64,000 nt of DNA from Blasia pusilla (Eukaryota): assembly GCA_050084515.1 (NCBI GenBank), contig CM114271.1:13640001-13704000 (forward strand), in the 5' to 3' direction. The number at the start of each line of letters is the position of its first letter. Positions within the stretch are counted from its first letter, which is position 1. Both the position numbers and the translations under genes were made by a program. Below, in pieces: positions 5,417 to 50,665 of this stretch. The notes under the pieces are model-generated. The model was not told the origin of the DNA. It did no database searches and saw only the letters and a program-made list of their open reading frames with translations.

Positions 5417-5419
<3 letters not shown>

Positions 5420-5465: not shown

Positions 5466-5466
<1 letters not shown>

Positions 5467-5799
5467 AACTTGTGCTCAGTAGGTTACATCCTTGGCTCTT
5501 GACCTGCAATAAGGGATCCATCTCGTGCCTTTTGCTCATCCCCACAGCTTTAAAGGTAGGATTTAGGTTCCAGACTTCCTAGGAGATCCTCCCCCTTATA
5601 GATGATTCTTGAGATCCTCAATACGATTTACTAGTAGTCTGATAGGCCGAAACCACGAGATATGGTGATATTATCATATCTAATGGTGCCATCACATGAA
5701 GAGAATTGATTGACAACTATAGCCATGAAGGTAACACATCCATAGTGCTTGCCCTTATGAGAAGAGTGTCATGATAAAAATATTTTCCAAGGAAGGGGA

Positions 5800-15568: not shown

Positions 15569-15700
15569 CACTCTAATTACAACTAGTGTGTTGCCCGATG
15601 CAGGGGTGACCAAGTTTCTTTTAAGACAACCCACTCTAATTACAACTAGTGTGTTGCCCGATGCAGGGGTGACCAAGTTTCTTTTAAGACAACCCACTCT
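15569..15700. repeat. Perfect 63-bp tandem duplication
   Basis: cactctaattacaactagtgtgttgcccgatgcaggggtgaccaagtttcttttaagacaacc starts at both 15569 and 15632. Confidence 0.95.
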
Positions 15701-18715: not shown

Positions 18716-18974
18716 TGGAGAGAAATCCACTGAAAGAAGAAGGAGAAAGTGCACAAACACCACATATACTTACCTAGCCACTTGCAAGGATAAAGGCATG
18801 ATATCTAAATGATCCTTGAGCAAGGTTTTGAGTCAAGGGCAAGAAGCAAGGAAGTGGGGAAGGTTAGTGGAGTTGGGTGAGACGTCGTGAGACAAGCTAC
18901 AAAGCACAAGGATCGGCAAGAAAATCATGAGACACCAAATGATGGACATGGAAACACATGTTTATCAATAAGGC

Positions 18975-19491
18975 TGTCACGTCCTTTAGGATAGATCGGT
19001 GAGATATAGTAGAGCGTCTTCAAGAGTAGTGGAGGACAGGCCTAGGAGGTTGAGGATGACCTGCTGTGGCCCCGGGAAACCTGAGAGAGCAGGTTTCCCC
19101 TTCGTTTTGGCTCATTTGGAGCCATATTGAGGAACTTACTATTTTAGGTAAATACCATTTTGAGTATATGATCGACTTTGTATTTTTGGTAAGTGGCCCT
19201 TGACCTCCTACATCAGGTCAAGAGCCAAAGAGGTGACTTGGGAGAATAGTTTACCATGGAGAGAGCTTGGGAGAGGGGAGGGGTATATATCCCAAGGAGA
19301 GAGAGAGCTTGAGAGCTCATTCTCTCTTTGTTAAACCTCTTGGCATGAGGCGGCGGAGCTATGGTCCCTTGCCTTGTGAGTGTAACCCAAGCCTCTCATT
19401 AGGAGAGTGGGTTTGGTTTGACATGAGAGAGAGTGCACACCTTTGAGAGCTATGGTGTGAGATTGTGTAGAGAGAGATTGGATCTTACTTT
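18975..19491 (+). repeat. Terminal repeat A1 of copy 1
   Basis: Near-identical to 29732-30250 (about 8 substitutions and one 2-bp indel by eye). Contains TATATAT at ~19284. Not followed by B. Confidence 0.95.
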
Positions 19492-21386
19492 ACAAAGAGA
19501 TAATGAGAGAAAGAGAGAATGCGAGAATGAGAGAGTGAGAGAGCTTCATGGGGGAGCTCGCTGGTCACTCGCTGTTTTTGAAGGTTGGGGACCGTGTTCC
19601 CCGTTGAACGGCTCATGGGAGTGCTCATCGGAGCACGGGTTGCTTGGATTGTTTTTTGCATTTGTCGATTTTTCGTGTGGAAGAGTGGCGCCGGAAGCGC
19701 TGCCCAATTTCTGATAGGGATTGAGTATGGGAGCGGGTTGCCCCATGCCAGTGCTTTCAAGAGCACCATGTTGCTTTCTGATTTGCATTTTTATAGGTTT
19801 TACATTTTTGTTGGGAGCAATCAGCGCGGAAGCGGTGCCGAATGTTGGGTAGAAGAAAGAGACATTGGGCTTTACGACAGTCCTGGTTAGTTTTTACTGG
19901 AATGTTCGATTCCAAACATTTTTTAATACTAGCGTAGATCGTGAAGCTGTGCACGATGTGCAACAAAAAATTGCGCAATTTGGAGTTGCAAGCAAAAAGT
20001 TATGGTCAATCTTGCAAAACTGCCATTGCTAGGCGATTTTTAGGGTTAAATTATGCAAACCCTAAACCAGGCGCCACACCGGAGGCGGCCGTCGCCGTCA
20101 ACCTTCAACGGTCAACTTTCACCATCAACGGTCAACCATCACCAGCGACGGTCAACCGTCAACCGTCACCATTCGTCTGTCACCATCAACAGTCAACCGT
20201 CACCGTCAATGGTCCACCGTCCGTTGTCCACCCTTGGTTTCCATTGCCGCCGTTACGGAGTGGAGGGTCTTCCACAACGTTCGTTGATTCTCGGACTTGC
20301 GTCACGATCACATACTTTGTTTTGGCCGCCACTGTCATCAACCTGTGATGGCATATGACCTCATGTTATAGTGTTTGAGTTTTGATTTCCTGCTGCTATG
20401 TTGTGATTGGTAGCCGCTCAACGACGACCGAGTATCGTGCCATGACGTCCGTAGCCACAACTCGCCGCCGATTGCCGCGCCGTGCAGCTCGTGGCCGCAC
20501 CGCACCGTCTTGATCGCGGAGCCGCTCCAGCATTGTGGAGCAGAGTGTGGGTTTATTGTTGATTGAGGAGGGTATGCCGCTGAGTGCGGCATCCCATCAT
20601 CGAGGGCCATGCCGTTCGTAGCCGTTCCGTGCCGCCTGCAACGCCGCACCATTCCGCTGGAACTGCACCGTCTATCGAAGAGTTTTGAGCAACGTCAGTA
20701 CAGGAGGAGTATGACTTGCTGATTGGAGGAGTTGTCTCCACGTCCGAGTTGGGGTCGAGATTCGCAGTTGCTGATGGAGCGACATCGACATGTGTTCAGG
20801 TTACTCATTCTAGTCCTTTACCCTGCACGTGTGAAGGATTCTAGGATTTGGGTAGTTTATTTGGAGATATTGGATGTGTGGATGCTGAGAGCATAATTTA
20901 TGTATGTGATTTAGGGGACATAGACCTATGTGGGATGTCCGGAGTTGAGGGTAGGTTGTCGATGAGATGATAGCCTGGTCGATTTGCCGCACCATGCCGC
21001 TTATTGCCGCACGTTACATATCTCGGGGAGAGAGAGTGGAGATCGAGTGCCGCATGTTTGGGATGAGTGATTGAGGGATTACTCGCGAGGCAAGAGTGAT
21101 CGGGTGAGAAGGGCACGAGGGTCATCAAGGCGTCCGTTCGGGACTTTGAGAGGCGAGGTGGTGAACCCGAGAGTAGCTCTAGAGGTTTTACGCGGAGTGG
21201 CCTGAGGTTCCAAGGATCTTCACTTCAAGGACCACCTCGACCTCCTTCTGTGTCATCGTCATACGAGGGGGAGGGTGTAGAGGAATTTGTGAGCACATTG
21301 CCACACTTTGTGAGTGGTCCTACAAGTTGGGCGTACGAGATGGACGACCGGGGTAGAGGTTTTCAAGTGCAGTAGGTACGATTGAG

Positions 21387-22362
21387 TTGCACGATTTCAT
21401 AGCAGAGTTTAGGAGTTGGTGCGACTCCGAGCGGGCCAGGAACTCTAGAGAGTTTAACCCGTTTACAACATGGAACGGTATGTTTCAACATTTAGAGGGG
21501 GCACCCATGGACGATTACCATGAGTTTTCCCACAGATATGCCCAGGAGATTGAGGCATGGCGATTCTACTACGACCCATATTATGTGTCATGGACGGAGC
21601 CACTCCCAGATGAGGAGGAGGAGTCAGGACAGGCTACTTCCTCTTCCACTAGTGATGTTTTAGGAGGGGTCACTCGCATTGGAGCAGTTGCACCGTCTAG
21701 TCGAGTTCGTCTTAGGTTCAACCCCGTGGTTGAGTTCTTTGCTGAGTTGAGGGCGAGCTACCAAGGGGTATGGATGGAAAAGTTGCGGAGCATCCACAAC
21801 TTCCAGAGGTGCCCGAGTGAGAGTTTACGTGAGGCTTACACCCGCTTGCGCCGGTTGATCAACGTCACTCAGGGGTTGACAGAGGCTCAGACTATCCAAT
21901 CATGGTACGCGATGGTGGACCAGACCCTACGGCCACGGGTGCGGGAGGGGGTTCTTCTTATGAACACCTCCCCTACGTTGAGAGATGTTTTTAGGACCGC
22001 CGAGAACATTGAGCGCAACATGGCAGAGGAGAGTGTAGCCACCATGGGTTCTGGGCGAGAGCAGTCGCGATTGGCTGCACCACCTGTGCAGCAACGTGGA
22101 CTCCGAGATGGGTCAACTGTGGCATCACGAGCTCAGGGAGGATACCGGGAGCCCGTGGCACAGAGACCTGCGCCTTCATATGCGGCTCAACAGCAACCAC
22201 CTACTATTACTTGTTGGTCATGTGGGGGAGCCCATCATCAGCGCCACTGCACTTGTCAGGGTCATGGACGTATGCCTTAGCATGGAGGAGGAGATGGTGC
22301 TGCACCAGGAGGTTATCAGTGTGACTATTATCAGAGGTATGGTCATACACGCGCCAGGTGTT
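21387..22362 (+). pseudogene. gag with two zinc knuckles
   Basis: Retrotransposon gag-like FQRCPSESLREAYTRL; knuckle CWSCGGAHHQRHC; second knuckle CDYYQRYGHTRARC after a frameshift (intact as CDHCHRYGHTRDRC in copy 4). Confidence 0.85.
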
Positions 22363-22574
22363 TCAATTTACATCCTGAGCTACGTTCGGACCGAGGGCCA
22401 GAGAGGGCACTAGAGCGAGTAGCCGGTCCGGGTGGGCCTAGAGATTGTGCACCAGGTGGTCCCGTTGGGGGACGAGGAACTGGATTTGCCCGACAGGGTG
22501 GTGGAACTGCCCGTGGAGGAAGTAGAGTACCACCACCTAGACGCGCCGAGGGAGACGCCGGATGTGAGGCTAGG

Positions 22575-23663
22575 ATGGCTGCTGAGATACAGCAGCTACA
22601 GGAGCAGATTGTTGCTATGGCATTGAGGTTACCCGATGCCGGATCCGTGGCATCGACATCATATGGAGCAGCTAGAGATCTGGAGGATCTTGGTTGGATC
22701 TGCGGGGTTGCCAAGATGGAGGCCGCTGCAGTTGTGACGCGTGGAGCAGCCGCAGAGTTGGATCCACAGCGAGGGGAAGCCAGAAAACAGACTAGACTTC
22801 CTCAGTCTTTCACGTTGTCCGAAGTGATGAGGACCCCATCGATGAGTCCTCATCAAAGTTCCTTGGGAGTTGGTGATGTTGTTGGTGTGCAGGCACGGAG
22901 GGTGATGGGAGAAGTGAGTGCGAAGACTCCTATTGTTGATGCTCAGGAGGGGCATGTGTCGAGCATATTGTTGGGGGCGGCCACCGTTGTGTACCGCACT
23001 CCTTTATTTTCTGCTTCCGATGTTATGACGTTGGGGGGTACGCCCGCCGAGGCTTTTCGGTTGGCCGCGTCGCTATGTGAGCGGAGAGTTGGATTTCCTG
23101 CATCACGTTCAGAGGTAATTGCAGAGGAGGTGATGGACCTGCCCTTGGAGCGGATGCTCGGACCGTCCACGTCAGATTCATGGCAGGCTGCGGCTGCTAG
23201 AATGGCGGAGATGCCCACTAGACCCGCGATAGAGCGTGCCATGGCTTCTCCTGGTGTTGTGTTGCTGGATAACCGAGGAAAGGTCTTCCAGTTGGTGAGT
23301 CCTGGAGGTAGAGCTTTTAGTCCGCAGCGCGTCTTGTTGGATTCAGGAGCGCAACCCTTGATGTTGGGGAAAGCGTCATTCAGAGGATTGGGCTTGACGA
23401 GAGCCGATATGGAGCGTTTTCCATTCCGGATACAGACATCCTTGGGTGGAGCGAGTACCACACAGTATATCACCCGACAGGAGATTGTGGTGAGGATTTG
23501 CTCGGGACATCCTACTGATGAGTCTGTGGTGGGCGCCAAGGCGATAGTGACTGATGTAGAGTCCTACGACGTCTTGGTTGGTGGAGCAGTGTTATACCCG
23601 ATGGGGTTTTCCCTGGATTACTGGGAGGAGTCAGCGCCCCATGACCAGGATGGCGATCGGTGA
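22575..23663 (+). pseudogene. Retropepsin-type aspartic protease region
   Basis: RVLLDSGAQPLML active site and YDVLVG C-terminal motif. Confidence 0.85.
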
Positions 23664-24048
23664 TGGGCGCCTTAGCTCATTACCCATTCGATTCACAGGT
23701 GCAGTGATCGAGCAACGGCCAGGAGAGATGGCGACCTTAGCAGCATTTAGCAGTGCCATCACTTGGCCTAGTGATTTGATTGAGGAACATGTCCATGCAG
23801 AGGATACTCCCATTCTTGACATTTCTATGGAGAGGAGTGTTATGGTAGCCGCATCATTCCATGGAGGAGAGGTGCCGTTGTGGGGCTCGAATGAGGAGCC
23901 TCAACGATTGGCAGATGAGCACGTGGAAACTGCGTGGAGCGAGGCTTTTGCACCGGAGCGTGATGGGTGTGAGGAACCCGAGGTAGCAAGGAGTGCTATG
24001 ATGACACCCTTGGATATCACACCCATTGTGTGGAGTATCCCGGAGAAG

Positions 24049-24995
24049 GGTATTCGAGTATTAGATCTCTTTGGAGGGATTAGCACGGGGTTAGCTGCTG
24101 TTTTGCAGGCAGGAGTGCGAGTGCAGCAGTATCTATATGTGGAGAGTGATGATGTTGCGAGGCGTGTCTCACTACAACATGTGGCGCAGTTACGCCTACG
24201 TTTCCCGAATTATTGTTTGCGTCCGCGGCACAAGGATACCAAAGTTCCCTACCGAGGGATATTTCGTTGTTGGGGGCGCAGGACTTAGAGCGGGTAGGGA
24301 CCATTGATTTGGTCATTGTCGGTTGGCCATGTCAGGGCCAATCGAGTGCTGGACGAGGCAGCGGGTTGGTTGACACTCGGTCCAGGTTGTTTTGGGAGAT
24401 GTTGAGGGTCTTACGGCAGTTGCAGGAGCACCGGTCTTGTTCTCCAGCCTACATTTTGGAGAATGTGCTGATCTTAGGAGACTCCAGGTCACGGGTGGTG
24501 ACGAGTGCTCATCAGGTGGGTGCCTGGATCGGCCCAACAGTGTTCTTGGATGCGGCGAGTGTAGGTTCTAGAGCCCATCGCCCATGTCTATGGTGGACCA
24601 ACTTGGTGCCCCATGCGGTGTTATGAAGGGCGTATGCGAGAGTGGAGCGCCCCTCCCATTTGTTAGTGGATTTCATTCTGGATCTAGGTCGTCAATCACA
24701 AGCAGTGAGGCACGATGATCGACCATCGTTGACTGTGGTCAACAGGGTAGGCAGGCCGCGGGTTGCCATGCCCACGTTTGTGAGTTTTCCCGCTTCCTAT
24801 GCATACAAGGAGACCGGTCCTGGCTTGGTTTGGGATGACCAGGTTCAGCGGTTAGTGGAGCCCAACGCCGACAAGAGAGAGCGAGCGATGGGATTTCCCA
24901 TAGGAGTGACAGCAGTACCATCAGTGTCAGAGGCATCATGATGCCATGTCTTGGGTCAGGCGATGGACCTGAATTGCTTGACATGGATCCTCAGC
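24049..24995 (+). pseudogene. DNMT3-like C5 cytosine DNA methyltransferase domain within pol
   Basis: Motifs in canonical order: I IRVLDLFGGISTG, II YVE, III RDI, IV DLVIVGWPCQ, RSRLFWE, VI ILENV, VIII RAHRPCLWWTNL, IX ERAMGFP, X LGQAMD. One frameshift and in-frame stops. Confidence 0.92.
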
Positions 24996-25399
24996 TTGGG
25001 AGTGGCTGAGCAGCGTCGTATGAGATCGCGAAGATCACGGCCGGTTGCAAGCAGTGAGCCCCATGCCTACCGAGACGGTGGAGGCAGTGGCTGGGGGCGA
25101 GACCCGAGGAGATCGGGAGAGACACCCTTGGACTTCTTGGGATGTTTTGCAGCGTACGCAAGAAGATGATAGCCACAACATCGAGTGTGGTTTCGGGCAC
25201 TGCATGTGGAGGAGTTCAGAGTTTGCAGTTGGCTGCAGGAGAGCGGCCGAGTGTTGTTGTTCGAGACCGGGTTGCACCATAGCAACCACCGATACCCACA
25301 CCGGAGAGTCCTACCGTAGTCACGATGGAGACTTGGGAGCCACATATGGGCCCTAAGTTGAAAGGAGGAGAGCGGCGCCGAATACATCAGTTCCTCATG

Positions 25400-27400
25400 A
25401 GTTATAGGAGCTGCTTTGCGTTTAGCATGGAGGATTTGGGTACGCTGAAGGGATCGGGGATCCGCATTGAGTTGTCGAGTGATACGCCAATCTTCTGACG
25501 ACCCTACAGGTACAGTGATATGGAGAGGGCTCTGATTCAGAGTAGGAGCCAGGACTTGGTCAGAGCAGGACTAGTGGAGATGTCGCATGGGGAGTATGCA
25601 TCTGCCGCTCTCATGCCCGCCAAGAAGGATGTGCATGGCAACTGGACGGATAGGCAGATGTGTGGGGATTACCGACCTATCAATCGGCAGACGAAGTCCG
25701 ATAGGTATGCCATGCCCACCCATGAGGAGATCTTTGATGCGATTGGTCATGCAAAGGTCTTCAGTTCATTGGATTTGCGAGCCGGATACCATCAGCTGCC
25801 TATCAGATTGGAGGACAGGCAGAAGATGGCATTTTGGGGCATCGATCCTCACGGGAAGGATTGTTTGTACCAATGGCGGTTCTTACCATTTGGGTTAAAG
25901 AACGCCCCGGGTGAGTTTCACAGGGTCATGGATAGGATCTTGGCTGGTTTGGATTTTGCTAGGTGTTATATTGATGACATCGTAGTCTTTAGCGCCACGG
26001 TTGAGGAGCATGAGCGACATCTAGAGGAGGTGTTTTGACGATTGCAATTACATGGGCTGAAGCTACATCCAGGCAAGTGCAAGTTCCATTACGACCAGAT
26101 TGAGTACTTGGGTCATACGATATATATCCAGGGGGCCTTGGTGTTCAGCAAACGAAGGTAGAGGCTATCTGTCGCGACCCTCATGACCAAACAAGTGCCA
26201 AGCGGAACATCGGAATATTAGCGGGCTCACGCTAAGATGGTTTGCGCGTTGGAGTGTCTCAAAGAGGAGACAAGAGACGAGACGCGAACGAGGAGTCGCG
26301 TTTCAGTTGTTATGGTCGCGACTAAGAAACGTGGACCAAACGCGGAATGAGACTTGGAAGAAGTCGAGTCTAGGAAGTGGGTTGCCAAAGGGAAGATCCG
26401 GATTTGGAACGCCACTAGCGTTTGAGAGTTTCCGACTGTATTTATGGCCATAACTTTTAGCTCCAAGATGCGTTTGGAGAAAATAAGGGTGCGATGGAAA
26501 GCTTATGGAGAGCCGGTCCAAACGCACTAGAGATTGCTGCAAACGCATAAGCAGCGGCTGAGATACGACCCGAAAACGACTGTAAGTGGAGTCGGGTTGA
26601 GGGCCACAATGAAGGGCCCGACCCTCTTTTCCCAAAGGGGAGGGGTTATTGGAGAACCCCAGAAGTACTAGTAAGGGGGAAGGTCTCCGAGAGTGCTTGG
26701 AACCCAAACCCCACTTTGGGCGCCGCGGGGCGGCTCAAGGGCATGGAACGGAACGCGAGTTTGGGCGTTGGGTTGGAAAACCTGCACCAAGTCCATTGAG
26801 GTGATTTTAGACATCCCTCTTGGAATTCACACCGCGACTCAATTACTTGGGTCTCGGTTCAGAACTCACCCGAGGACCGTTGAACAGTTGGGATCGCTAG
26901 GTGCGCAAGGGCCGTTTCAGATCCCTGGACCAACCAGGAAGTCTGTTCCAAGTCTTGAAGGACTTGCCATGTTTTGGAAGCTAGGAACTAAGGAAGGTTG
27001 AGCTTGATGAGACGCCGAGTTGAGGACTCGGTGGGTTGGAACGCCGGTTGGCCCAAACCCAACTAACGGAGTGCGTGTTTGGGTGCAGATCGGCGATGAG
27101 TTCGTGACCTATTGAACGCACGCTTCCGCAACACTAAAGATTAACGTTCAAGGAGAGTAGGGGCGCGACACTATCTCACGCATTCCACGCCCTACAGATG
27201 TGAGCCATGTTCGCGCATTCATGGGATTGGCGAACTTCTATCGGTGATACGTGAAGGGATTCAGTTCAATTGTGAAGCCATTGGCCTTGTTGACGAAGGT
27301 GAATCACGAGTGGCACTAGGGGGATGAGGAGGAGCGAGCATTTCAGTTGCTCAAGGACAGGTTGACTTCTGCGCCCATCTTGAGGAGACTGATCAGGGGG
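25400..27400 (+). pseudogene. Gypsy-type reverse transcriptase, interrupted by a solo LTR
   Basis: MCGDYRPIN, SSLDLRAGYHQL, LPFGLKNAP, YIDDI. KVEAI/SRIPRP rejoins when 26170-27170 and one TSD copy are removed. Confidence 0.93.
26170..27170. mobile_element. 1001-bp solo LTR of an unrelated retrotransposon inserted in RT
   Basis: TGTCGCG...CGCGACA termini; 5-bp TSD CTATC (26165-26169, 27171-27175). Confidence 0.88.
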
Positions 27401-27412
27401 TGTCCTTTCTAG

Positions 27413-27886
27413 TTGCACACAGATTGGAGCATGTTGGGGCTTGGAGCCGTGCTCACCCACCATGATGATGAGGGTAGAGAGTTCGTGGTGGCTTATGCTA
27501 GCCGCTCGAACAACGCTGCAGAGGCAAAGTACAACTCGTATGAGGGTGAGTGCTTGGCTGTGGTATGGGTTGTCGCGCATTTCAGGTGTTACTTTTTCGG
27601 CAACCCCTTTACCATCATCACTGATCATCAACCACTGAAGTGGTTGATGGAGTCCAACAAGCTTACAGGGAAGCTTGCGAGATGGGCTCTGTTGTTGCAG
27701 GAGTATGATTTTCAGGTGGTACATAGACCTGGGACGCTCAACCAAGATGCAGATGGGTTGAGTCGTAACCCATGCCCGAGTCAGCGAGATGCGACTGGAG
27801 CTCGATGGCATGGAGAGAGTGATGAGGAGTTGGTGCCAAGATGGCACGCGTCAGCCTATTTAGGCATGTTGGCTATGGAGAGCTAG
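27413..27886 (+). pseudogene. Gypsy RNase H
   Basis: LHTDWSMLGLGAVL, VAYASR, YEGECLAVVW, TDHQPL, LARWALLLQEYDF, NQDADGLSR. Confidence 0.93.
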
Positions 27887-28149
27887 AGTGTGGAGACTTC
27901 GATGGCGAGGTCTAGTGGAGAGTCCTTGGATCCCGAGGCCAGTGAGGAGACGACAAGTGGTAGAGATATTCATGATGATGGAGTAGTCTTGGAGTACCTT
28001 CGTACTCGCAACGTTGCGAGCACCGTGGATGCTAGAGAGCAGGATCGGATCCTATATCGGGCCTGACGGTTCCGTTGGGAGGGGTACATATTTTGAGGGT
28101 TTGGGAGGATGGCAAAGTACACGTAGTGCCGCATCCTTCGTAGAGAGCA

Positions 28150-29215
28150 CGACTAGTGCAACATGCCTAGGAGGAGTTGGGTCACTTTGGGGTGAAGCGG
28201 AAGTACAGCTTGCTCCAGATTCAATATTGGTGGCGAGGCATGCAGACTGACGTTCAGCAGTTTGTTGCCAGGTGCATGGTGTGTGATCGGGTCCGAGCAT
28301 CGTTCAATGCTCCGACTCTACAGTTGCATCCATTACCGATCATGGGCTTAGGGTATAGATGGAGTTTGGATTTTGCAGGACCTTTGTCTTTGACGGTGCG
28401 TCACAATCGTTATGTGTTGGTGATGGTCGAGCACTTCTCGAAGTGGATCGAGTTGGTTGCATTGCCTGACAAAGCGAGTGAGGGAGTAGCTTATGCCTTC
28501 CTTGACAGAGGGCTAAGTCATTATGGCACACCGGATGAGGTGTTGACAGACCAGGGTACCGAGTTTAGCGGTGAGTTCCAGGCCTTGTGTGATCACGCTC
28601 TGATCGACCACCGCACGACATCGCGAGATCATCCCGAGGCGGATGGATTAGCAGAGAGAGTTGTGCAGACGGTGAAGAGGGGTTTAAGCAAGTTTGGCTT
28701 GCAGAGAGGGCACCTAGGAGATTGGGACCTCCAGTTGCAATGGTTGGAGATGGGATACAGATTCAGCAGGCAGGTAGGCAGGCATCCTTAGCGTCTTTTT
28801 CACCGTACTTGCTACTTTATGGCCGAGAGCTAGATTTACCTGCGGCCATTTGTCAAGATGCTGGTGAGTTGCTAGACCTTAATGACCCAGATGTATGGGT
28901 GCGAGCATGTTCTCAGAGGGCTGAGTTGTTTCGGAGAGCGATGCCCATGGCGTTCGATAACTTGGCGATTGCGCAGCATCGAGATACGTTGAGGTATGCG
29001 ACTATTCGGGATGGTGGTTATCGACCAACTATCCGGAGGTTTCATCAGGGAGATTATGTCTACTTGCAGTAGACGGCACTGACGACGTTGGATGTGACTG
29101 CAAGGCGCACTATCTTGAGAGTGCGTGACGTTTTGCCATCCGGTGTTCTCTCGCTGGAGGGACGCGATGGTATGGTATGGAAGGACCATGTGTGTAATTG
29201 TGCACCATATCACCT
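28150..29215 (+). pseudogene. DDE integrase
   Basis: GHFG...CMVC zinc-binding region; core WSLDFAGP, LTDQGTEF, GLAERVVQT. Confidence 0.93.
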
Positions 29216-29273
29216 TCCTAACATTGATAGTACAGTGGATTCGAGCTTAGCAGTAGGTCCTGCAGGCTTGTAT

Positions 29274-29414
29274 TGTATGTTGTGTGGTTCTGCCCGTTGT
29301 GCGGCCACGATGCTAGTCTGTGATGGTTGTTCGAGAGGTTGGCATATGGCATGTCTGACGCCACCTCTCACTAGGGTTTCTCGAGGACAATGGATGTGTC
29401 TCAGATGTACATAG
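29274..29414 (+). pseudogene. PHD finger at the C-terminus of integrase/pol
   Basis: CMLC...LVCDGC...WHMACL.PPL...GQWMCLRC is a C4HC3 pattern, followed by a stop. Confidence 0.9.
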
Positions 29415-29601
29415 AGGAGATACTAGGTAGGTTTCGATCCCGACCTTTTTCTCTGACATGGATGACAGGAAGGCGACTAACGATGGGGCCACATGAGCAC
29501 CCAGCCTTCTTGCTCTTAGCGTCTGAGAGATGTATGCCATGGTAGGTAGGGATAGATGGCTATCTAGAGTTAGAGGGACCTAACCACCAGCTATGGGGGT
29601 G

Positions 29602-29729
29602 ATTGGAGATATTTTGGTACTTCGTGTCTCGTTGTTTGGATGGCATGAGTTAGCATGGGATCGTGCGTGTTTGTGTGAGTGTTCAGTGATAGCGATGTAT
29701 GTTGTGTAGCGATATGTATGCGCACGACA
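29602..29729 (+). repeat. Repeat B1 of copy 1
   Basis: 128 bp, attggagat...cgcacgaca; matches 30251-30378. Confidence 0.95.
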
Positions 29730-29731
29730 GC

Positions 29732-30250
29732 TGTCACGTCCTTTAGGATAGATCGGTGAGATATAGTAGAGCGTCTTCAAGAGTAGTGGAGGACATGCCT
29801 AGGAGGTTGAGGATGACCTGCTGTGGCCCCGAGAAACCTGAGAGAGCAATTTTCCCCTTCGTTTTGGCTCATTTGGAGCCATATTGAGGAACTTACTATT
29901 TTAGGTAAATACCATTTTGAGTATATGATCGACTTTGTATTTTTGGTAAGTGGCCCTTGACCTCCTACATCAGGTCAAGAGCCAAAGAGGTGACTTGGGA
30001 GAATAGGTTACCATGGAGAGAGCTTGGGAGAGGGGAGGGGTATATATCCCAAGGAGAGAGAGAGAGCTTGAGAGCTCATTCTCTCTTTGTTAAACCTCTT
30101 GACATGAGGCGGCGGAGCTATGGTCCCTTGCCTTGTGAGTGTAACCTAAGCCTCTCATTAGGAGAGTGGGTTTGGTTTGACATGAGAGAGAGTGGACACC
30201 TTTGAGAGCTATGGTGTGAGATTGTGTAGAGAGAGATTGGATCTTACTTT
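29732..30250 (+). repeat. Repeat A2 of copy 1
   Basis: Copy of 18975-19491, separated from B1 by a 2-bp GC linker. Confidence 0.95.
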
Positions 30251-30378
30251 ATTGGAGATATTTTGGTACTTCGTGTCTCGTTGTTTGGATGCCATGAGTT
30301 AGCATGGGATCATGCGTGTTTGTGTGTGTGTTCGCTGATAGCAATGTATGTTGTGTAGCAATGTGTATGCGCACGACA
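30251..30378 (+). repeat. Terminal repeat B2 of copy 1
   Basis: Copy of B1; ends CA, followed by TSD AGGC. Confidence 0.95.
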
Positions 30379-33300
30379 AGGCGCAAAGGAATTGGGATGA
30401 GATTCCACAGGAGTTTGGGGAAGTATAGATTGGAAACATTTGCCATGAGACTCTCCATAGTCATCTTGGTGGTTAACTATCCAAACGCGGTTTCTTGAGA
30501 TGTGAACCAAGTTTGGGTTAAGAACCACAACCAAGGGCCCGCGGTGGATGTGGAGAAAAGTAGGGTTCTACGATAAAACTCCCAAAATACCTATAGGGAG
30601 GGACCAAGGTTGCACGCGGACAAATGTCCGTCCCAAGGACGAACATGTCCATGCGGGCTCGGGTGCAGGCTCCATGAGCCTGTGTTGCCTGCGACCCGCA
30701 CCCGCACCCGGGCCCGTGCACACCAAGCATTCCACCCTTGCCCGGCCAGTGTGCATCACGCTCGGCGTTTGTTTTTCGGTAAGGCTCGCGTCGCGGACAA
30801 GTTGGGCCCATGTCGCGTCCTTTGATTTGTTGCTTCTGACCCTAGCCCACATTCGGGTTCTATGGCCCACGTAAAGCCTGCGCACGGGCTTCGTGGCTCG
30901 CGACGCCTACCCTCCGGCGCGCAAGCCCGCCCCGCCCTCCCCGGCCTGCATGCGGGCTCGTGAGCCCGCCTTGCCTCCCCTCCTTCCCCCCGGCCCGTTG
31001 TAGCCCGCGCGGGCCTTGCCAAATTGTGGGGCGCCATGTGGCACCGCTATTCGTAGCCCGCCGACAATTGCCCCCACCATAGCCCGCCGTCAACGGCCCA
31101 ATCGTTGGCGCCCGCATTGAGCCCGCGTCTCGCGAATCCCACGGGGATATGTGGCGGCCTGGGAGTGGCTAGGGGCAAGTTCAAACTTGGCCCCGCCCCA
31201 TCCCCTTCCCCACCTTCCCCTTTTCTCCCTTTTGGGTAAAACCCATAAGAGAAGGGCCCACAAGAGGCTCCAAAATGTACATATGGAGGGGGGATTAAGG
31301 ACTTAATTACCTAATTATCACTAATTTCCCCTATTTATCTAGTTTTTTGGTGTTATTTTGGATTAGGCTCCAAATTTTTATGGTGCCTTGATAGCTAAGG
31401 GCTTTCAAGGTTACTAGGAATTTTGGAGAAATCCCTTGGGTGCCTTTTGGGGGTACTTGGATTTTATTTAGGACCAACTTGGATATTTGCGCTCCTTGTT
31501 ACATCCTAAAGAAATTCCAATTGACTCCACATTAGGTGAGTGCTTGTGAGTACGGATTTTTTATTTTCTAAACTTGTTTGGCCATTTTGAGATTTCCGAT
31601 TCATAGACCCCACTGTTTTGATTTTGATTTTGATTTGTTTCATTGGTTCTCCTTAGTACATCGGGGATATGGAGGTGATCAAGGAACCTTATCTAAACAC
31701 ACCCATATCTACCTTTTCCCTTTGAGTGCCCAACCCTAAACTTAGACCGACGTTCCATCATTCACGCCCGCGTACATTCTGAGCCATTTTTTTAGCATCT
31801 CGCGTCATTATCTTTTCGGTATTTTCTTATCTCAACTCGTACATTTCTTTCCCTTGTATTTTTAAAAGATTTTTTTATCTTCTTCATCCGAGGAAAATAT
31901 CTAGTGGGGCTGGGTCATCAAGAGCGGAAGAGAACCGAAACAAGTCCAACGTTGGTGCCTAGAGGCAAAGAGAAAATTTGAGAAATGATTTCAACATGGC
32001 CGTAAGAGAGGCATGGTTAGACTAGTTTTTCCAGCTTTCTTTAGATAAGAGACAATCCTCCATTTTGAGGGGTATGGATGGTTTCCATGACTACACCTTG
32101 GAATTGTAGAGATTTTCCAATAGAGTGGCAAAGGCATTTGACTGGGAAGTGGATGCCGCGGAGGCTGATAGGTTAACTAAATTGTGTGACCAACAAGGTG
32201 CTAACCTGGAGAGAGCGTATGTCAATCTCAAGACATATAAGGATGAGAAGTAGAATGCTGCAAAGTTGGCTAGAAAGATTCTATGTAGAGTTAAGAAGTG
32301 CTCAACGTCTTTTTAAGGGACGTAGTACTTCTCTAAGGTTGACATTGACCATTCCATGTGCAATAACATTGATTTCGGATAAGAATGTAGTAGTAGGACA
32401 TGACTCGAGAAATATCATGGAGATTGGTTTACACGGAATTGTGTACTGTTGTAAAATAAACGGAACCCATGGCTTTAGGGAAGAAATATACAATTGCATG
32501 AAGGTGTAAAAGGAATCATCTCTATCAGGATCTAGGAAATCGATGATGCGCGAGGAGTTATTTGCAAGTATTTTACATCGCGATGTTGTCCGCATGGTGG
32601 GAAGGTTGATCGGGGATCCACTGCGTACCATTTTCCCATATTGGAATGATGGACACCTCTTAATCCAAGCACACAAGTGCAAGATCTTTTGAATTGGATG
32701 AAGGCAATCGTAGTAAGTGAAGGAGGGGCTCTCACGCCAAACAATTGGCCCAAATGCATGATCTACTTCAACCCAGTTGCTGCAGAAGGTTACTACGTGA
32801 CAGACATATATAAATCTTGTTATTGGCATCCAAATTGTCTTCATAAGGCCATGCTACTATCTCTCAAGTGTCAAACTTGTTGACAAGCTTGGTCAGGAAG
32901 ACTCTATCACCTTTTTGACATATCTTTCCGCGCTTCTGCTGGCAGTGCATCACCCACATATTGGACGTAAACCGAAGAGCAAGAAAATTTCACTTTCAGT
33001 TTGGGACATCGTAGCCCCCGATCGAACTATAACCCCGAAGTGAACATGACGGGGTGGTTCAAGCATTAATCCCTTGTTAGCAGAGGATTGATTGGGCAAT
33101 GCGAGCGTGGCTGGTCCGCTTCATTGACATGTACGATCGAGGAGAGCTCATCCATGAAATAGCCATTGATCTCCAAAATCAAGAGGCGGAAAACTTCTTC
33201 TTTGCTCAGAGGTTGAATCCACAAGAACTTTGAGACGCCCTCAATACAACTCGACAACTTGTGCTAAACCATCATCAAAATCCATGGGTGGATGACCTTG

Positions 33301-34379
33301 TTTTGAGGAGACTCGAATTGATCTTGCCACCTTTCTTATGACAAGATATTCCTCAAAGGATTGAAGGCGGATATCCTCAAACATACTATTACCCTCGTCG
33401 AATGTAGGAGGAACTCCTTGGATTCTTTGAGAGGGAGTGGGAGATGTTTTCAACACAGCCAACACAAGAAATAAATGATCGTGAAGCCCATGTTGAGTTG
33501 GAAAGGACTATTCCTCGTGGAGGTGGGACGCGCGTGACTAGAGCTAGGGGAAGAGGAGGAAGAGTTGGTGAGACGTCTCGACGGTCTTACATATCTCTGA
33601 TGATGAATCAGATTAGATAGAATGAGTTCATATTTATATCTTTGTAATGTACATAAGTATTAGGTTCCTCTCAATCCAGATGTTTTGTGAGGTACTCCTC
33701 ATTTTTTGTAAATATATTTTAAAAAAAATTCAAAATATTCCACTGAGGAGACTTGTGAATATGAGCCGGTCATAAATGTTGTCCATGAAGTGAGTTCATA
33801 AAATGGATAAATTTTTTCTCTTGGGTTATAAGTCCTTGGATAAGGTGTAGGGTACGATAATTGAAAGGTTTGTTTGATATAAATTTAAATATTTTATTTA
33901 TTACTAACTCTTCAAAATTTACTAACTCATCAAAATTAGTGATTTTATTTTATTTATTGAAAGATGAGGATTGGAAAAGGGATGAATTTGTTTTCCAAAA
34001 TTAATGAAGGAAAATATATGTTTGAATCTAATTGTAAAGGAAAATAATGTATGAATTTTTTTTAGTGACCAATATTGCATGGGGTAGAATTTGAAAGGGA
34101 TTTACATGGGATAGAAATTTTTTTAATACTATAATAGGTGAATATAAATATTACCAAAAAAAGAGAAAAAAAGATAAAGAAATTATTTGTGCCTTCATTC
34201 ATATGTAATGGAAAGGGAAATTGAATTTTAATGGAGAAGGAAAAGATTTGGTTCGAATTTTATGGAAGGGTGAATTTACTTACGAGACTAGGATATTATT
34301 TACATTTGAATTCATGACAATAATTACTTACAAGAGTGAAATATAATAACTCTTCTAAGATTTTACAGGATAGTGCAGA

Positions 34380-35310: not shown

Positions 35311-35329
35311 GTAGGGACTCTCTATACAC

Positions 35330-41684: not shown

Positions 41685-43560
41685 TCTCGTGCCAGTAGAC
41701 ATCAATGCAAACAGACATCGGCTTTCATGCACACAAGTCTAACATCTATCTAACTATGAATCCTAACACATCTACATATGAACGACTGGACAACCCAACA
41801 ATAAAATGCCACGTTGATCAAATGTGCAATCAACTATGCCTAGTCCAAGAATCCACTCAATGATACACAGTCTGCAATGAACTCTCAATATGTGTGATTT
41901 CCGATCAAACCTATTTCATTCTTCAAAAGAGAATCTAGGCTCAATACATGCAAGTTACATTGTATCATGGATCCCAACATGGGTTTGATCTAAGGAAGAT
42001 GAACTTTGAATGAACTTCATTCGAGGTACACCCCCCTTGGGCACCTCCCCGGGTGACTTGCACACACAGGTAATCTCCTCCTAGCAGGTCACCAACGACC
42101 TAGAGAACACAAGGTACTAACTCCCTAACAACTACATACAAGGTCCTTTCATAAGGTCAACTAATACTCAACTCAAAACTAAAACTCAAACCCTGTAGGC
42201 CCAAGTGGTTCCACACAAAGGATAACATGGTGAACCTCCCCAAGATTGCTACTTCTCATAAAGGGAAGCATGACCTATGGTTGTAGATCACCTCCTAAGA
42301 GCATGTCACATATTACCTCTTAAAATGGGGAAGTACAAGACCCATCTAATATAAGGCCTCAATACTATTTCTCCTTACATCTCATCTACCATAATAGTTG
42401 TCATGTAAGTTGACATCGTTGCCAACATAGATGCGTTGTCATGCACACAAGTCTAAGATCCATCTAATTATGAATCTAACACATTTACACATGAACGACT
42501 AGAAAACCCAAATCATCCCTCTAGCTGGTGGTTAGGTCTAAGTATAAATATTATGCACCTTTCTGTGCTAAGATCAAGAGGTTGGGTGCTATGTTGCCCT
42601 ATCATTAGTCACCTTCTTGCAATCCATAACATCAAGAGTCATCTTGTAATCTACTTATAATATCTATGTACATTTGGGGCAAAATCAACGTCACTAAGGA
42701 ATCAAATGAAGAAGCGGTGTCGAACAAAAATATATGCCATACTTGAGAACACCCATCATAGACTAGCATCGTGGCTACTCCGTTAGAAGACCCATACAAC
42801 ATACATCTCAAACTTGTAGGAACAAGTGCCAAACTCAGATCAATAATCCCATCCACATTCAGAAGATGATATGGTGCATAGTTATGTACATAATCTCTGT
42901 AAAGGGGGACCATCACAAGCTTCTAAAAAAAAGTACAGTTTCCTAAAAGTAAAAACTCTTGTCGTAGTACTTGCAGAATAGTGCATCCTATTGTCACGTC
43001 CTATGTTGTTGATGCCATTTGCGTAAGTAGACATAATCAACATGATGGAATAGTCGTATCCCTTATTGATACCTCAGAGTATTGCGATGCCAAGCGATAG
43101 CGAGGTTCTTAAATGCCATAAGCATGGTACTCCAAAAGATCTCAGTCGGTTGAGAATATGCTTGCATCCAAAAGTCTGGGTCATCAAGTTCAAGTACTTA
43201 GACCACATCTATACTAGCTCTCTCCCATAGAGCAGGAAATACGATGAAAATAATGCCAACCATGCTTGTCGATTGGAGCAATAACCCATTGCACCAACCA
43301 TAAAAATTATAGGTCCCAATCTCTTAAGTGTCCTCTTTGCAGCCGATACTTGCGTAATGCTCTTCTCACTATTTGCAAAACTCTCTCTGCCAAACCATCT
43401 ACCTCCAAATGATCTCGAGAAGTTGACCGATGACCAATCACCACCTGATGCCACAAGGCATGAAAATCACCCCTAAACTCAGCACCCTAGCTTATCAACA
43501 CCTCCGCTGATGCGCCAAAATGAGTAAGCTCTCAATCAATAAATGCATAAGCGGCTCCAA
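41685..43560 (-). mobile_element. 3' fragment of DNMT-gypsy family (copy 3): integrase end, PHD remnant, B-A-B repeats
   Basis: B copies at ~41685-41800 and ~42399-42512, with A between them; PHD remnant CMLYGSSNGVATMLVYDGCSQVWH; integrase remnant FSSYFLLYGREL. Confidence 0.85.
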
Positions 43561-45110: not shown

Positions 45111-45153
45111 AGCAAACTCGGTACAATATTTCCTCCTAATATTTTGAACCCTT

Positions 45154-48100
45154 TGTCGTGCGAATACACATCGCTGCTAACATACATCAATTGTCATGCA
45201 TACACATGTCTGAGATCCATCTAGCTATGAATCATAACATCTCTACACATGAACGACTAGACAACCCGAATATAAAGTTGAATATGCACTGTAAACTCTA
45301 ATGAAATCTACAATTAACCATGCTTCATCCAAACAGCCATATTCGTGAATCAGATACTACACACTGTTGTTACAGCAAGAGAAAGTATACACAAGGACTC
45401 CCAAAATATGTGATCCTCCTTATTGATCGCTCCAAACCCACTCTTCAAGAGAGAATCCAGGCTCAATACATGCAAGCTGCATCGTATCACGGATCCCAAC
45501 ATGGGTCTCCAATCCTAAGCAAATGAGCTCGAAATGAGATTCATCATAGGTATACCCCCCTAGGCACCTCCATGGGTGATCTGTACATACACGTCACGTC
45601 CCTCCTAGCAAGTCACAACCAACCTGTAGTACATAAAGTACTAACTCTCTAACAACTACACATGTGGTCCCCTCATGAGACCAACTACCAACTAACCCAC
45701 GACCCTATAGGTCTAAGTGGAGTCATACATGGCTGGGAAGGTCAACCTCTCCAAGGTTACCACTCCTAAGAGCACGTCACATATGATCTCTCAAAATAGG
45801 GAAGTACAAGACCCCTTTAAGGCCTTGATACTATCTCGCCCTACACCTCATCTACTATGACAGTTGTCATGCGAATACAGATCGCTACCAACATACATCG
45901 GCTATCATGCACACACATATCTAAGATCCATCTAGCTATGAATCCTAACATCTCTACACATGAATGATTAGAAAGCCCCAATCTCTCCCTAGCTTGTGGT
46001 TAGGTCCCTCTATCTCCACATAGCCTACAAAACAAGTCTAAATGCTATGCATCTTTTCGGTGCTAAGATCATGAGGTCGGGTGTTATGTTGCCCCATCGC
46101 TAGTCACCTTTGAGCAATCCATAACATCAAGAGTCATCTTGTAATCTACCTATCACCTATGTACATAAGGGATAAAGCCAACGTCCCTGAGGAACCAAGT
46201 TAAGAGGCGGCGTCAAACACGACATATGCCATACTCAAGAACAACCATCACAGACTAGCATTGTGGCTGCGCCTCTGGTGGATCCACACAACATGCATCT
46301 CAAGCCTGCAAGAATAAGTGCCAAGCTTGGATCTTTCCAAACGGTACCATCATGACCCTATAAAACTAGGACTCCTGAAGGTAAAATCTCTCGCACTCGC
46401 AGAATAGTGCATCCCGCTGTCACATCCAATGTGGTTGGTGTTGTCTGCTATAGGTAGATATAATTGCCAAGATGGAATCTCCAAAATCCTTTTCAATAGC
46501 CTCCTCCACGCGTAGTCGCATACTTCAGAGTATCGCAATGCTAAGCGATAGCCAAGTTTTCAAACGCCATAGGCATGACTTTCCAAAAGAGCTCAACCCG
46601 TTGAGAACACGCTCGCACCCATACGTCTAGATCGTCGAGGTCAAGTACCTCAACCACATCTCGTCGAATTGACAACGATCACTCTGCTCTCTCCCATAGA
46701 CCAAGGAATACGGTGAAAATGATGCCAAGGACGCCTCCCGACTGAAGCTGTAACCCATCGCCAACCACAGCAAGTGTAGGTCTCAATCTCCTAAGTGTCC
46801 TCTCTGCAATCCATACTTGCACAATCCTCTCTTCATCGTTTGCACAACTCTCTCTGCCAAACCATCTGCCTCTGCATGATCTTGAGAAGTTGTACAATGA
46901 TCTATCAGTGCGTGATCGCACAAGGCCTGAAAGTCACACCTAAACTCAGTACCCTGGTCTGTCAATACCTTTGCTGGTGCACCGAAATGAATAAGCACTC
47001 GATCAAGAAATGCATAATCCGATCCCTCACTTGACCTATCCAAAAATGCTATGAACTCAATCCACTTGGAGAAGTGCTCCACCATAACCAACACGTACCG
47101 ACTATGGCGTCTTGTCAATGGTAAAGGCCCCGCAAAGTCTAAACTCCAACTATACCCTAATCCCTTGATTGGTAAAGGATGCAAGTGTGGTTTCAAAGCA
47201 TTGAATGATGCCCCTACCTATCACATGTACATACAATGCATCTGGCTATAAATTGCTAAACATCAGTCTCCATACCATGCCACCAATATTGAATCCGAAT
47301 CAAGCTCTACGTACGCTTGACTCCAAAATGCCCTAACTCCTTGTGAGCATGTCTCACAACTTGTGCTCGTTGCAAAGCATGCAGCACCATCGGCACTTGT
47401 CCATCCTCCCAAACTCGAAGCACATGCCTCCCCTCCCACCTGAACGTCCTAACTCGATGAAGAACTTGATCCCGCTCTCTAGCGCCCACCGTGCTCGCTA
47501 AGACACATGTGCGTAGGTACTCCAAGACCATCTCATCGTCGTGGATGTCTCCAGTCCCTATTAACTCCTCACTAGCATATGGATCTAAGGACTCACCATC
47601 CAACCTCCCTCCTGGAGTGGATGCCTCCTGTTGACTTGACATAGCCAACATACACAAATAGGCAAATGCATGCCAACCCGACACCATCTCCTCATCACTC
47701 TCACCATGCCACCTCGCTCGAGTCGCATCGCTTTGGCTCGTGCATGGGTTATGACTCAACCCATCCGCATCTTGGTTCAGATGTCCTAGGAAATGGACAA
47801 CATGAAAATTGTACTCTTGCAACAAGAGTGACCATCTCGCAAGCTTATGTGTAAGCTTGTCAGACTCCATCAACCATCTGAGTGGCTGATGATCAGTGAT
47901 GAGCGTGAAAGAGTTCCCGAACAAATAACATCTGAAATGGGCCAATGCCCACACTACAACTAAGCACTCCCCCTCATAGGAACTTTACTTTGCCTTCGCA
48001 GCATTGTTTGAGCGGCTCGCATATGCCACTAAGAACTCCTTCAACTCATCATCTCTCTAAGTGAGCATCGCTCCTAACCCCAACATACTCCAGTCCGTAT

Positions 48101-49950
48101 GTAACTGGAACGGACAACCACACATAGGTCTCCTCAAAATGGGCGAGGACATTAGTATGTCCTTGAGCTCCTGAAATGCTTGCTCATGATCATCTCCCCA
48201 AAACCACTCTTGGTCCAACCTAGTCAGCAAAGTCAGTGCCTTTGCAATCGCACTAAAGCCCTTCACGTACCGTCAGTAGTAGTTTGCCAATGCCATGAAA
48301 GCTCGAACTTGACTCACATCTAAAGGGTGGGGAATGCGCGCTATGGCCTCCACCTTTGTATGCTGAACTCCAATACCCCTTGGATAAATGGTGTGTCCAA
48401 GATACTCAATCTGGTCATGGAAGAACCTGCACTTGCCTGGATGTAACTTCATCCCATGTAACTGGAATTGTTGAAACACCTCCTCTAGATGTCTCTCATG
48501 CGCCTCAACCGTGGCACTAAAGATGATAATGTCATCAATGTAACATCTTGCATAATCCCAACCAGCCAAAATTCTATCGTTAACTCCCTGAAAACCCGCA
48601 GAGGCGTTCTTCAACCCAAATGGTAAGAACCGCCACTGGTACAAACAATGCTTCCCGAAAGGATGTATTCCCCAAAATATTGTCTTCTCCTTGTTCTCCA
48701 CCCGGATGGGCAACTAATAATAGCCAATATGGAGATCCAAACAATTGAAGATCCTTACATGCCCCACTACATCAAAGATCTCCTTAGGAGTAGGCAAAGT
48801 ATAGCGATCAGCCTTCGTATGGCGATTGATAGGACAGTAATCCCCACACATCCGCCTATTGGTCCAGTGGCCATGCATGTCCTTCTTTGCCGGCATAACT
48901 ATGGCAGATGCATACTCTCCAAGAAATCTCTCCACGAGTCTAGTGGTAGCTAAGTCTTGACTCCTACTCTGAATCAAGGCTCGCTCCATGTAAGAATACC
49001 TGTCCTAGTAGACACTACAATGCAAAGTGGACGTAATGTCACAAACGCCTCTCGCATCCGTCTGTGCTCAGCTAATGCAACCCAAGACTGGACATTCAAG
49101 TAAGACAGTTGAGGGCCATAGCCTCACCGAATATCTATTTGCGGGATGCCTCTACCATCATAGGCCCCGCCGTCGTACCTATAGAGAACCCCATAGCTTG
49201 CTCTCGCTTGTCCCATGTCATGCCCGGTCCTCCTTGATGAAAAACATGAGATGACGGAAAACTCACCAACTAGGCAATGTTGCCCTCTGGTGGCCACTTC
49301 CAACGGTGGTACATCATCACGAGTAACAAGTTGCGAATGCCGCTTTGGATCCAAGATCACATCCATTGTAAGTAGTGATGGTCTTTGGACTCCATCATAA
49401 GCTTGCCTCAGCAACTCGGATGGTAAAAGGTTTGTCCACCACAATCGTGGACAGTGTGCGCGCGATCCAACAGTACTCGCTGCATCCAAAATCACCACGG
49501 GTCCTATCCATGACCACACATGATGTACACTCGCCATCACTCGGGCTCGAGTGTCACCTAATAATGGGATGTTCTCCAAAATATAGGTTGGAGAACATCG
49601 CTGGGTAGTCTGCAAGTGTCGGAGAACTTGCAACATCTCCCAAAACTGCGTCGACCTCGGGTCCTCCAAACCAAGCCCCTGACCCGCCAAAGAATGATCT
49701 TGACATGGCCATCTTGCCACCACCAAGTGTATCGGACAAACCCTATCCAGATCTGGCGCCCCCAACAGTGAAATGTCGGCCAACAATACATGATGATATC
49801 CCCTGAATGTAGACATTGGCAACAACTGAGGATACAGTTGGACTAGTCTCAACACATGATGTACTAAGACTCTACCTGCAGTCTCATCTCTCTCAACATT
49901 CAAGTACAACTGCAGTCGTATTTCGGCCTACAACACTACAGCCAACGCTG
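45154..49950 (-). mobile_element. 5'-truncated DNMT-gypsy element (copy 2): DNMT-RT-RH-INT-PHD-B-A-B
   Basis: Terminus TGTCGTGCG at 45154 is the reverse complement of the copy-1 end CGCACGACA. DNMT WPCQ/ENI/WWTNL in ORF 49124-49909; RT YIDDI in 48273-48713; RH 47307-48266; INT 46783-47196; PHD ~46160-46300. Confidence 0.92.
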
Positions 49951-50665
49951 TAGGTTTGAACCTCTTTAGGGTGGCTCATTTGTGCGGGCCCAACTTTAGG
50001 AAAAAAGGTAATAAATAAAAGATGGGATTATAAAAGCAAAGCAGTGGGGTTGGTGGTTTAATGGAAGAAAAGAAAAAGTAGTTTTGGTTGGTGGCTAGGA
50101 TAGTTGGGATAGTTTGGAAAATATGAAGTGAGTAAAGGAGGATATTTTGGAAGAGATAACTCGAGGGGGGCACTCTTTGTATACCTCTTACATCACCTAC
50201 GACGTTTTGGGGTCGGAAACCCCTAACTTATAAGTGAAATTTTTTTTCCTCCCCCTTACTTACTTTAAAACCGCAATTTTTTTAAAATTATAACCCCTAT
50301 ATTCTGTTAAGTAAATTTGTGTCCTTGATTTGTTTAGGGGCTTGAAAGTAAAGATAAGTACCTCTTCGCGCGGTGGTCTTGTATTGTTGCACTTGATAAT
50401 AGGCTATCAAAAGCTTTCAGCAATACCCAAGCCACTGCCAAACATAGTAATGATATGTAAGGCGGAATTACCTGCATGTTTCCATTGAATCAATATTTAG
50501 TGCAACTTCCACTTTCCCCATTACTTTGACACCTATGACGGAGAGAAATTGAACCTCTGTATTGGCAGGATGCTCATATGGCCACGCCGTCATCCCCCTA
50601 ATCTATCCCCTCCTAAAACTAGCCTATCATAAACTCACAAAATGACTTCACACATAACATGCACA

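Follow-up and report, generated by a model that had tools for sequence, protein, structure and literature searches.

Split direct repeats, in which a single repeat at the 5′ end is matched by a more complex series of repeats at the 3′ end, serve as a marker of tyrosine-recombinase retroelements. PAT-like and Ngaro elements of the DIRS order carry them in the order A1...B1-A2-B2, and their internal B|A junction corresponds to the joined outer ends; elements of this order insert without target site duplication. The element at positions 18975-30378 of a 64,000-nucleotide (nt) stretch of the Blasia pusilla genome (contig CM114271.1; this whole stretch is called the window below) shares both the repeat order and the relation between internal junction and outer ends. 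It differs from the DIRS order in that its family has a DDE integrase, TG...CA ends, a Ty3-like reverse transcriptase (RT) and 4-bp target duplications, which are present in the window element and in its relatives, whereas no tyrosine recombinase was found. Elements classified solely by the layout of their repeats can thus be misassigned, since split repeats are paired here with a DDE integrase and target duplications.

A comparable combination is already in print. According to the legend of Fig. 4c in de Mendoza et al. (2018; PMC5890265), KnitGypsy-Dnmt3 of Klebsormidium nitens combines repeats structured as in DIRS elements with the domain composition of a Gypsy element. By the wording of that legend, to which the likeness is confined, KnitGypsy-Dnmt3 resembles the window element in possessing DIRS-like repeats and a Gypsy-type pol that includes a Dnmt3-like domain; it differs in its green-algal host, whereas the nearest proteins to the present family are those of liverworts and Sphagnum, at 51-67% identity. 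The initial annotation had considered the architecture distinct and left it open whether it had already been described, which this legend shows to be the case: gypsy domains, a Dnmt3-like domain and split repeats occur here family-wide in a bryophyte, and do not make a new kind of element. The accessible portions of the 2018 paper offer no replication model, and later papers, as far as their accessible text goes, treat streptophyte Gypsy-DNMT3 elements only in passing. No account of the layout in bryophytes, of target duplications or of replication was found in the literature; the supplements of 2018 may hold details of the K. nitens repeats and duplications.

Two other systems bear on how such an element might replicate. 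Elements of the Tf1/Sushi type have been described as self-priming, and the same has been predicted for the moss Tcn1 clade (PMC6317226, in the part available). The Tcn1 clade is also present in non-seed plants. As in the predicted self-priming of the present family, the primer site of these elements adjoins the unique 5′ region (U5) and is complementary to the 5′ end of the RNA, but they have two ordinary long terminal repeats (LTRs) and a chromodomain, in contrast to the split repeats, PHD finger and DNA methyltransferase (DNMT) found here. Retroviral 2-LTR circles likewise contain a junction between U5 and the unique 3′ region (U5|U3) and a CA-spacer-TG palindrome, and retroviral integrases can cut such palindromic circle junctions, as stated in the accessible parts of two reports (PMC1905944; PMC1180852). 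The retroviral palindrome is formed where the LTR ends are joined, and retroviral circles are largely by-products, whereas in the present family the CA-NN-TG site would lie inside U3 with a 2-nt spacer, and the U5|U3 junction would be kept in every integrated copy.

The repeats and termini of the window element are as follows.

18971..18974, no strand: left copy of the target site duplication, AGGC (4-bp duplications recur in relatives)
18975..19492, + strand: repeat A1, the sole 5′ repeat, beginning with TG (repeat search, alignment)
29602..29729, + strand: repeat B1, ending with CA (repeat search, junction reading)
29730..29731, + strand: 2-nt spacer GC between B1 and A2, the center of the CA-NN-TG site
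29732..30250, + strand: repeat A2 (repeat search, junction reading, alignment)
30251..30378, + strand: repeat B2, whose terminal CA forms the right end of the insertion (repeat search, junction reading)
30379..30382, no strand: right copy of the target site duplication, AGGC (junction reading)

The arrangement proposed in the initial annotation, with A at the 5′ end only and B1-GC-A2-B2 at the 3′ end, was recovered by a search for direct repeats and by direct reading of the junctions. In one alignment, the A repeats extend over 18973-19492 and 29730-30251, with eight mismatches and one 2-nt gap in 520 columns (98.1% identity), and the B repeats (29602-29729 and 30251-30378) differ at eight of 128 positions (93.75% identity). 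These eight differences are spread across 29643-29714 and 30292-30363, and three of them are changes from CG to CA in B2; B1 deviates at four positions from the majority letter of the family in public runs of the source organism. The split repeats are far above chance expectation, and the layout recurs in other copies. On the left, the flank AGGC is followed by TGTCACG, and on the right, CGACA is followed by AGGC. The window element is therefore a single insertion with TG...CA ends and a 4-bp target duplication, as the initial annotation had held and as the 4-bp duplications of its relatives confirm. A 5-bp duplication (AAGGC, with the element ending in GAC) is formally possible for the window copy, but was set aside because the relatives show 4 bp. 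The B1-GC-A2 junction holds an 8-bp palindrome, ACAGCTGT, around the spacer. Repeat A can be extended leftward by 2 nt, since the GC that precedes A1 in the flank is the same as the spacer between B1 and A2; we read this match as a coincidence because the spacer of relatives differs from their flank, and an origin of the spacer from the flank was rejected on the same grounds, the two being unlike in loci L009 and L067.

The split layout is a property of the whole family, because other copies in the window, sequencing runs of the source organism and metagenome contigs agree on it. Two further copies lie in the window.

45153..49951, - strand: related copy Y, 5′ part missing, with B1 at 45864-45982, spacer AC, A2, and B2 at 45153-45271
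41687..43558, - strand: related copy X, 3′ part only, with B1, spacer AC, A2 and B2

Both have the same register as the window element, that is, internal region|B1-NN-A2-B2, at ~65-70% identity, so that B-NN-A-B is found at all three 3′ ends of the family within the window. For the source organism, public data comprising two DNA-contig runs and two RNA raw-read runs were mapped to 29400-30262. The family is present in extreme abundance, one DNA-contig run (X1) alone contributing 83,100 contig pieces. Small shares of it in several runs labelled as air metagenome or as other organisms were left aside and are not evidence of habitat or host. Repeat A is followed by one consensus internal sequence in 35 X1 records and in 41 reads of RNA run X22, and this junction occurs in both DNA and both RNA runs. 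Joints from A to B were seen in X1 contigs, in nine X22 reads and in 11 reads of the second RNA run (X23), and variants of the A|B junction with 0-7 extra letters occur among the contigs of the source organism. Loose ends fall exactly at 29729 and 29732 and are heterogeneous (agreement ~0.5), as expected of many insertion sites. Among the indexed public runs that contain the family, none was recorded as RNA; the RNA evidence comes from the two raw-read runs X22 and X23, in which sense-strand reads run continuously over the internal region, B1, NN and A2 at a depth of 60-280. Since most of these reads are only 90-95% like the window copy, the family is transcribed in the source organism, but not necessarily the window copy. 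Neither read depth nor read starts in the two runs gave a usable position for the transcription start or the poly(A) site.

A DNMT-based metagenome scan gave 80 loci, which were annotated with probes for A, B, the polypurine tract (PPT) and the primer site. A 5′ A followed by the primer-site block was found at 20 loci, corresponding to 17 distinct ends because three pairs have common flanks; locus L006, with a 5′ A but no primer-site match, is not among them, and L018 and L024, where a minus-strand PPT-B stands beside a plus-strand primer-site block, were read as nests and kept out of the counts. B stands neither before nor after A at any of these 20 related 5′ ends. Two complete identical LTRs around an internal region are thus present neither in the window element nor at any of the 20, which have A only. 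The initial annotation had named a complete A+B at the 5′ end of most copies as the finding that would overturn its reading; instead, A joined to internal sequence is the consensus junction.

At the other end, tract-B ends were found at 20 loci, eight of which continue into NN-A. Five of these eight reach B2 (L010, L046, L054, L067 and L070), one is cut at the end of the locus and two have a partial A. Complete elements of the form A-I-B-NN-A-B, where I is the internal region, are L067, L070 and L046. Perfect 4-bp duplications flank six of eight complete related elements, and a further one matches at three of four positions; in the eighth, the start of A1 is missing and the duplication is uncertain. 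The spacer is 2 nt in all eight junctions matched (GC, AC, AC, GC, AT, AT, AT and AC), and because its length does not vary while its letters do, it is constrained in length, not in sequence.

Repeat pairs in L062 and L040 that had first been taken as B1 and B2 were rejected, as they are not the B of this family. The pair in L062 (12184-13359) is a 200-bp direct repeat, the copies of which start with a TGGTATCAGAGC-type primer site; it belongs to another LTR element, which is nested on the downstream side of the DNMT match.

The coding region of the window copy, all on the + strand, contains the following features.

21357..23663, + strand: gag-protease frame with one in-frame stop (frame reading; relatives known)
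22212-22229, + strand: CCHC knuckle of gag
23334-23354, + strand: DSG motif of the protease
24061..24941, + strand: DNMT3-like C5 cytosine methyltransferase domain, PF00145 (Pfam, structure match)
25661..26123, + strand: reverse transcriptase, RVT_1, with YIDD at 25967-25984 (Pfam)
26170..27174, + strand: nested insertion of ~1 kb with TG...CA ends and a 5-bp duplication, CTATC, in the RT-RNase H linker (absent from copy Y)
27326..27707, + strand: RNase H, RT_RNaseH (Pfam)
28138..28659, + strand: integrase, with the Integrase_H2C2 zinc domain and the rve core (Pfam)
29274..29409, + strand: PHD finger at the C-terminal end of pol (Pfam)

The order of domains is thus gag-protease-DNMT-RT-RNase H-integrase-PHD. 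The Ty3/gypsy order of pol, protease-RT-RNase H-integrase, is kept, except that the DNMT domain separates protease from RT. In the DNMT, motifs I, IV and VI lie at 24061-24467, with a frameshift between motifs I and IV and in-frame stops. The D, D-35-E triad of the integrase is intact (28363-28380, 28543-28566 and 28645-28659). The best solved relatives are the Ty3 RT (E = 1.5e-28), the Ty3 integrase (E = 1.8e-15) and DNMT3A (E = 1e-6); a protein atlas search with the integrase returned a generic eukaryotic integrase and nothing more specific. On this domain content, the element is classified as a Ty3/gypsy-type retrotransposon that carries a predicted DNA methyltransferase. Its TG...CA ends and 4-bp duplication also agree with Ty3/gypsy elements, in which duplications of 4-5 bp are the rule. 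A six-frame Pfam scan of the interior of this one degenerate copy (19600-29591, both strands, stops read as X, E ≤ 0.01) gave no match to a tyrosine recombinase (Phage_integrase) and none to a chromodomain, the place of which is taken by the PHD finger. The description of pol in the initial annotation, gypsy RT-RNase H-DDE integrase with no tyrosine recombinase, therefore holds, but it had overlooked the DNMT, the PHD finger and a nested solo LTR. The window copy itself is degenerate, with in-frame stops, frameshifts and the nested insertion. This insertion is probably a solo LTR, or a solo A+B, of another element or family; its ends resemble those of the element that hosts it.

The positions of the predicted replication signals are of particular interest with respect to the repeats.

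29575..29601, + strand: conserved polypurine-tract region adjoining B1 (alignment with the metagenome family)
19284..19290, + strand: TATA-like box within A1 (A position 310)
19316..19330, + strand: segment 32 nt after the TATA box, complementary to the sequence just past A1; the putative RNA 5′ end acting as self-primer
19492..19521, + strand: putative self-primer binding site adjoining A1

The polypurine tract is strongly conserved between the family of the window and the metagenome family, ends in a run of G and adjoins the first base of B. The sequence past A does not look like a tRNA-type primer site and does not begin with TGG; no tRNA genes were found in the window by ARAGORN. Instead, the sequence past A1 is a candidate self-primer site like that of Tf1, as judged from its complementarity to part of A, the segment concerned beginning 26-33 nt downstream of the TATA box. 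In the family of the window, the complementarity amounts to 15-16 nt, when the post-A sequence from the runs of the source organism is compared with 19316-19330. In the metagenome family it amounts to 10-17 nt in 10 of the 19 elements tested, compared with at most 9 nt in control windows. The primer-site sequences of the two families differ, and the pairing is kept. In the predicted fold of the leader of L060, the first 17 nt pair with the 17 nt past A (z = -3.2; none of 200 shuffles was as stable).

Based on these positions, we consider it probable, at roughly 0.6, that the integrated form corresponds to a normal LTR element in circularly permuted order, the cDNA ends of which would be joined before the integrase opens an internal CA-NN-TG site. 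Transcription would start ~30 nt past the TATA box in A1, and the first 10-17 nt of the RNA would fold back on the complementary site adjoining A1 to prime the minus strand, as in Tf1. Plus-strand synthesis would start from the conserved polypurine tract adjoining B1. Ordinary reverse transcription would then yield a linear cDNA in which the LTRs are B-NN-A, and not A+B; A1 would represent the 3′ part of U3 together with R and U5, and B1 the 5′ part of U3. A tract at B1 and a self-primer site at A1 would imply not only such LTRs but also that A2|B2 is the U5|U3 junction. In the window copy and in four of five loci, the base that immediately precedes the primer site is indeed followed at A2|B2 by the one that comes directly after the tract; in L046, 19 additional nt intervene. 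The natural ends of the cDNA, namely the end of U5 and the start of U3, would be joined as in 2-LTR circles, which would produce the exact A2|B2 junction, and the integrase would cut the palindrome-like CA-NN-TG site of the upstream LTR and insert the opened molecule with a 4-bp stagger. The attachment site would thus be located inside U3, and a form like a 2-LTR circle would be a productive intermediate. The circular intermediate suggested in the initial annotation survives in a broader form, since either a circular or an end-joined molecule would fit the positions of the tract and the primer site.

Several observations weigh against this route. The joining, the cut and their order are read from the anatomy of integrated copies, and no extrachromosomal DNA was seen. 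The primer site of the window copy is disrupted, being split by a small duplication into 19492-19500 and 19510-19521, which leaves 9 and 12 nt; moreover, the minimum-energy fold pairs the RNA 5′ end elsewhere, and only the centroid shows the pairing. Read depth in the two RNA runs does not change distinctly at the predicted start, nor was any pile-up of read starts reported. The circle would contain two identical CA-NN-TG sites, and the model does not explain why only one of them is used: the product of cutting the other, A-B-NN-A-I-B, is found at none of the 20 related metagenome 5′ ends. Possibly, recombination between the two neighboring copies of A in such a product rapidly reduces it to A-I-B. 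In addition, the RNA reads that cross from A2 into B2 (nine in X22 and 11 in X23) mean that the junction could in principle be templated, and B1 and B2 differ by 6.3% compared with 1.9% for A1 and A2, whereas under the model neither pair would differ at the time of insertion. Finally, 11 of the 20 metagenome PPT-B ends pass straight from B into the flank, giving the form A-I-B, which also occurs with duplications; this could be a direct or primary product of integration, which the model does not require. The A-I-B form may alternatively be due to assembly collapse or to deletion between B1 and B2. At least some of the metagenome contigs appear to be chimeric or collapsed across the B repeat, because L035 (A-I-B) and L054 (B-A-B) share ~99% identical flanks while their interiors are only 91% identical and their forms differ. 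Other contig pairs with common flanks are L050/L051, L062/L063 and L035/L074.

Restoration of the ends as in DIRS and Ngaro elements would produce such a layout without a double-stranded circle. In a transcript running from inside A1 to inside B2, B1-NN-A2 would be the template that restores both cDNA ends, a role like that of the internal complementary region of DIRS-1, and the integrase would directly insert the linear cDNA, bounded by the A start and the B end. The repeat layout, which is that of PAT and Ngaro elements, and the nine and 11 RNA reads across the A2-to-B2 junction are consistent with this explanation, and the greater divergence of B1/B2 than of A1/A2 would fit a partly separate inheritance of B2. 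In DIRS-1 itself, the internal region is essential and the cDNA is mostly linear and single-stranded, according to the accessible part of one report (PMC7192593). Nevertheless, a tract at B1 and a self-primer site at A1 predict ordinary LTR-type ends, which would fall where B starts and where A ends; nothing primer-like occurs at the NN site to define ends, and the RT is Ty3-like and not DIRS-like. Reads from A to B are also ~4-5 times fewer than those from A to internal sequence in X22 (9 vs 41), two counts that were not measured alike. Such restoration is regarded as unlikely.

The order of events could also be reversed, a variant that seems more doubtful still: the integrase would act first on the internal site near the left end of the linear cDNA and insert both halves, after which end joining by the host would close the natural ends with no free circle. 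Anatomy and product would be the same as for a circular permutation formed by prior joining, and the A|B variants with 0-7 extra letters, as well as the 19-nt insert in one locus, are what end joining would give. Most junctions are exact, however, in the window copy and in four of the five loci, which is a better fit to blunt-end ligation than to break repair, and the choice between the two sites is equally unexplained. By far the least probable explanation is that an ordinary element with a full A+B LTR at each end was altered by a single rearrangement or nested insertion, or was misassembled. It is suggested by the 3′ A2+B2 block, which resembles a normal 647-bp LTR with TG...CA ends, and by the presence of nested elements in the region. 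The same layout is found, however, in copies X and Y and in the independent contigs L067, L070, L046, L010 and L054; B is absent from all 20 related 5′ ends, the A-to-internal junction is the consensus in two DNA and two RNA runs, and A1/A2 and B1/B2 carry point differences of their own. A one-off rearrangement or an assembly artefact is excluded by these family-level data.

If the permutation route is correct, a circular or end-joined cDNA would be a productive intermediate of an integrase-bearing element, which bears on the relation between DIRS-like and LTR-type life cycles. It would also be a natural, productive form of the circle-junction integration that is regarded in retroviruses as at most a side path. 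Extension of the route to a DDE-integrase lineage ranging from charophytes to bryophytes, with an attachment site in U3, a requirement for joining of the cDNA ends before or during integration and a fossil U5|U3 junction in every provirus, is more tentative, and we would place it a little short of even odds.

The proteins closest to the DNMT and gag regions of the window element are those of the liverworts Calypogeia fissa and Marchantia polymorpha and of Sphagnum (37-67% identity), so that relatives occur among the proteins of a laboratory model species, M. polymorpha. The order gag-protease-DNMT-RT is common to these liverwort and Sphagnum relatives. Of the far relatives, only P0020 has a full polyprotein; it is 34-39% identical and has the order RT-RNase H-DNMT-integrase-PHD. 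Because this order differs from that of the bryophyte relatives, the bryophyte family may represent a separate branch or a separate capture. With DNMT3-like and PHD domains encoded in pol, the element is a transposon carrying chromatin tools. P0020 belongs to a distant lineage, together with L071, L072 and L075, that shows 30-40% DNMT identity and long open polyproteins of 1350-1999 aa; no repeats were found in the contigs L071, L072 and L075, which are too short to show the layout.

Elsewhere in the window, a nest of related fragments occupies 4264-7545. Within it, 5133-5506 on the - strand corresponds to the 3′ part of A together with B; this piece is inserted into sequence that on either side matches the RNase H region of another family member. 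Tandem arrays are located at 34376-35333, 56862-57904, 15569-15694 and 54414-54509, with periods of ~180 bp, 348 bp, 63 bp and 24 bp.

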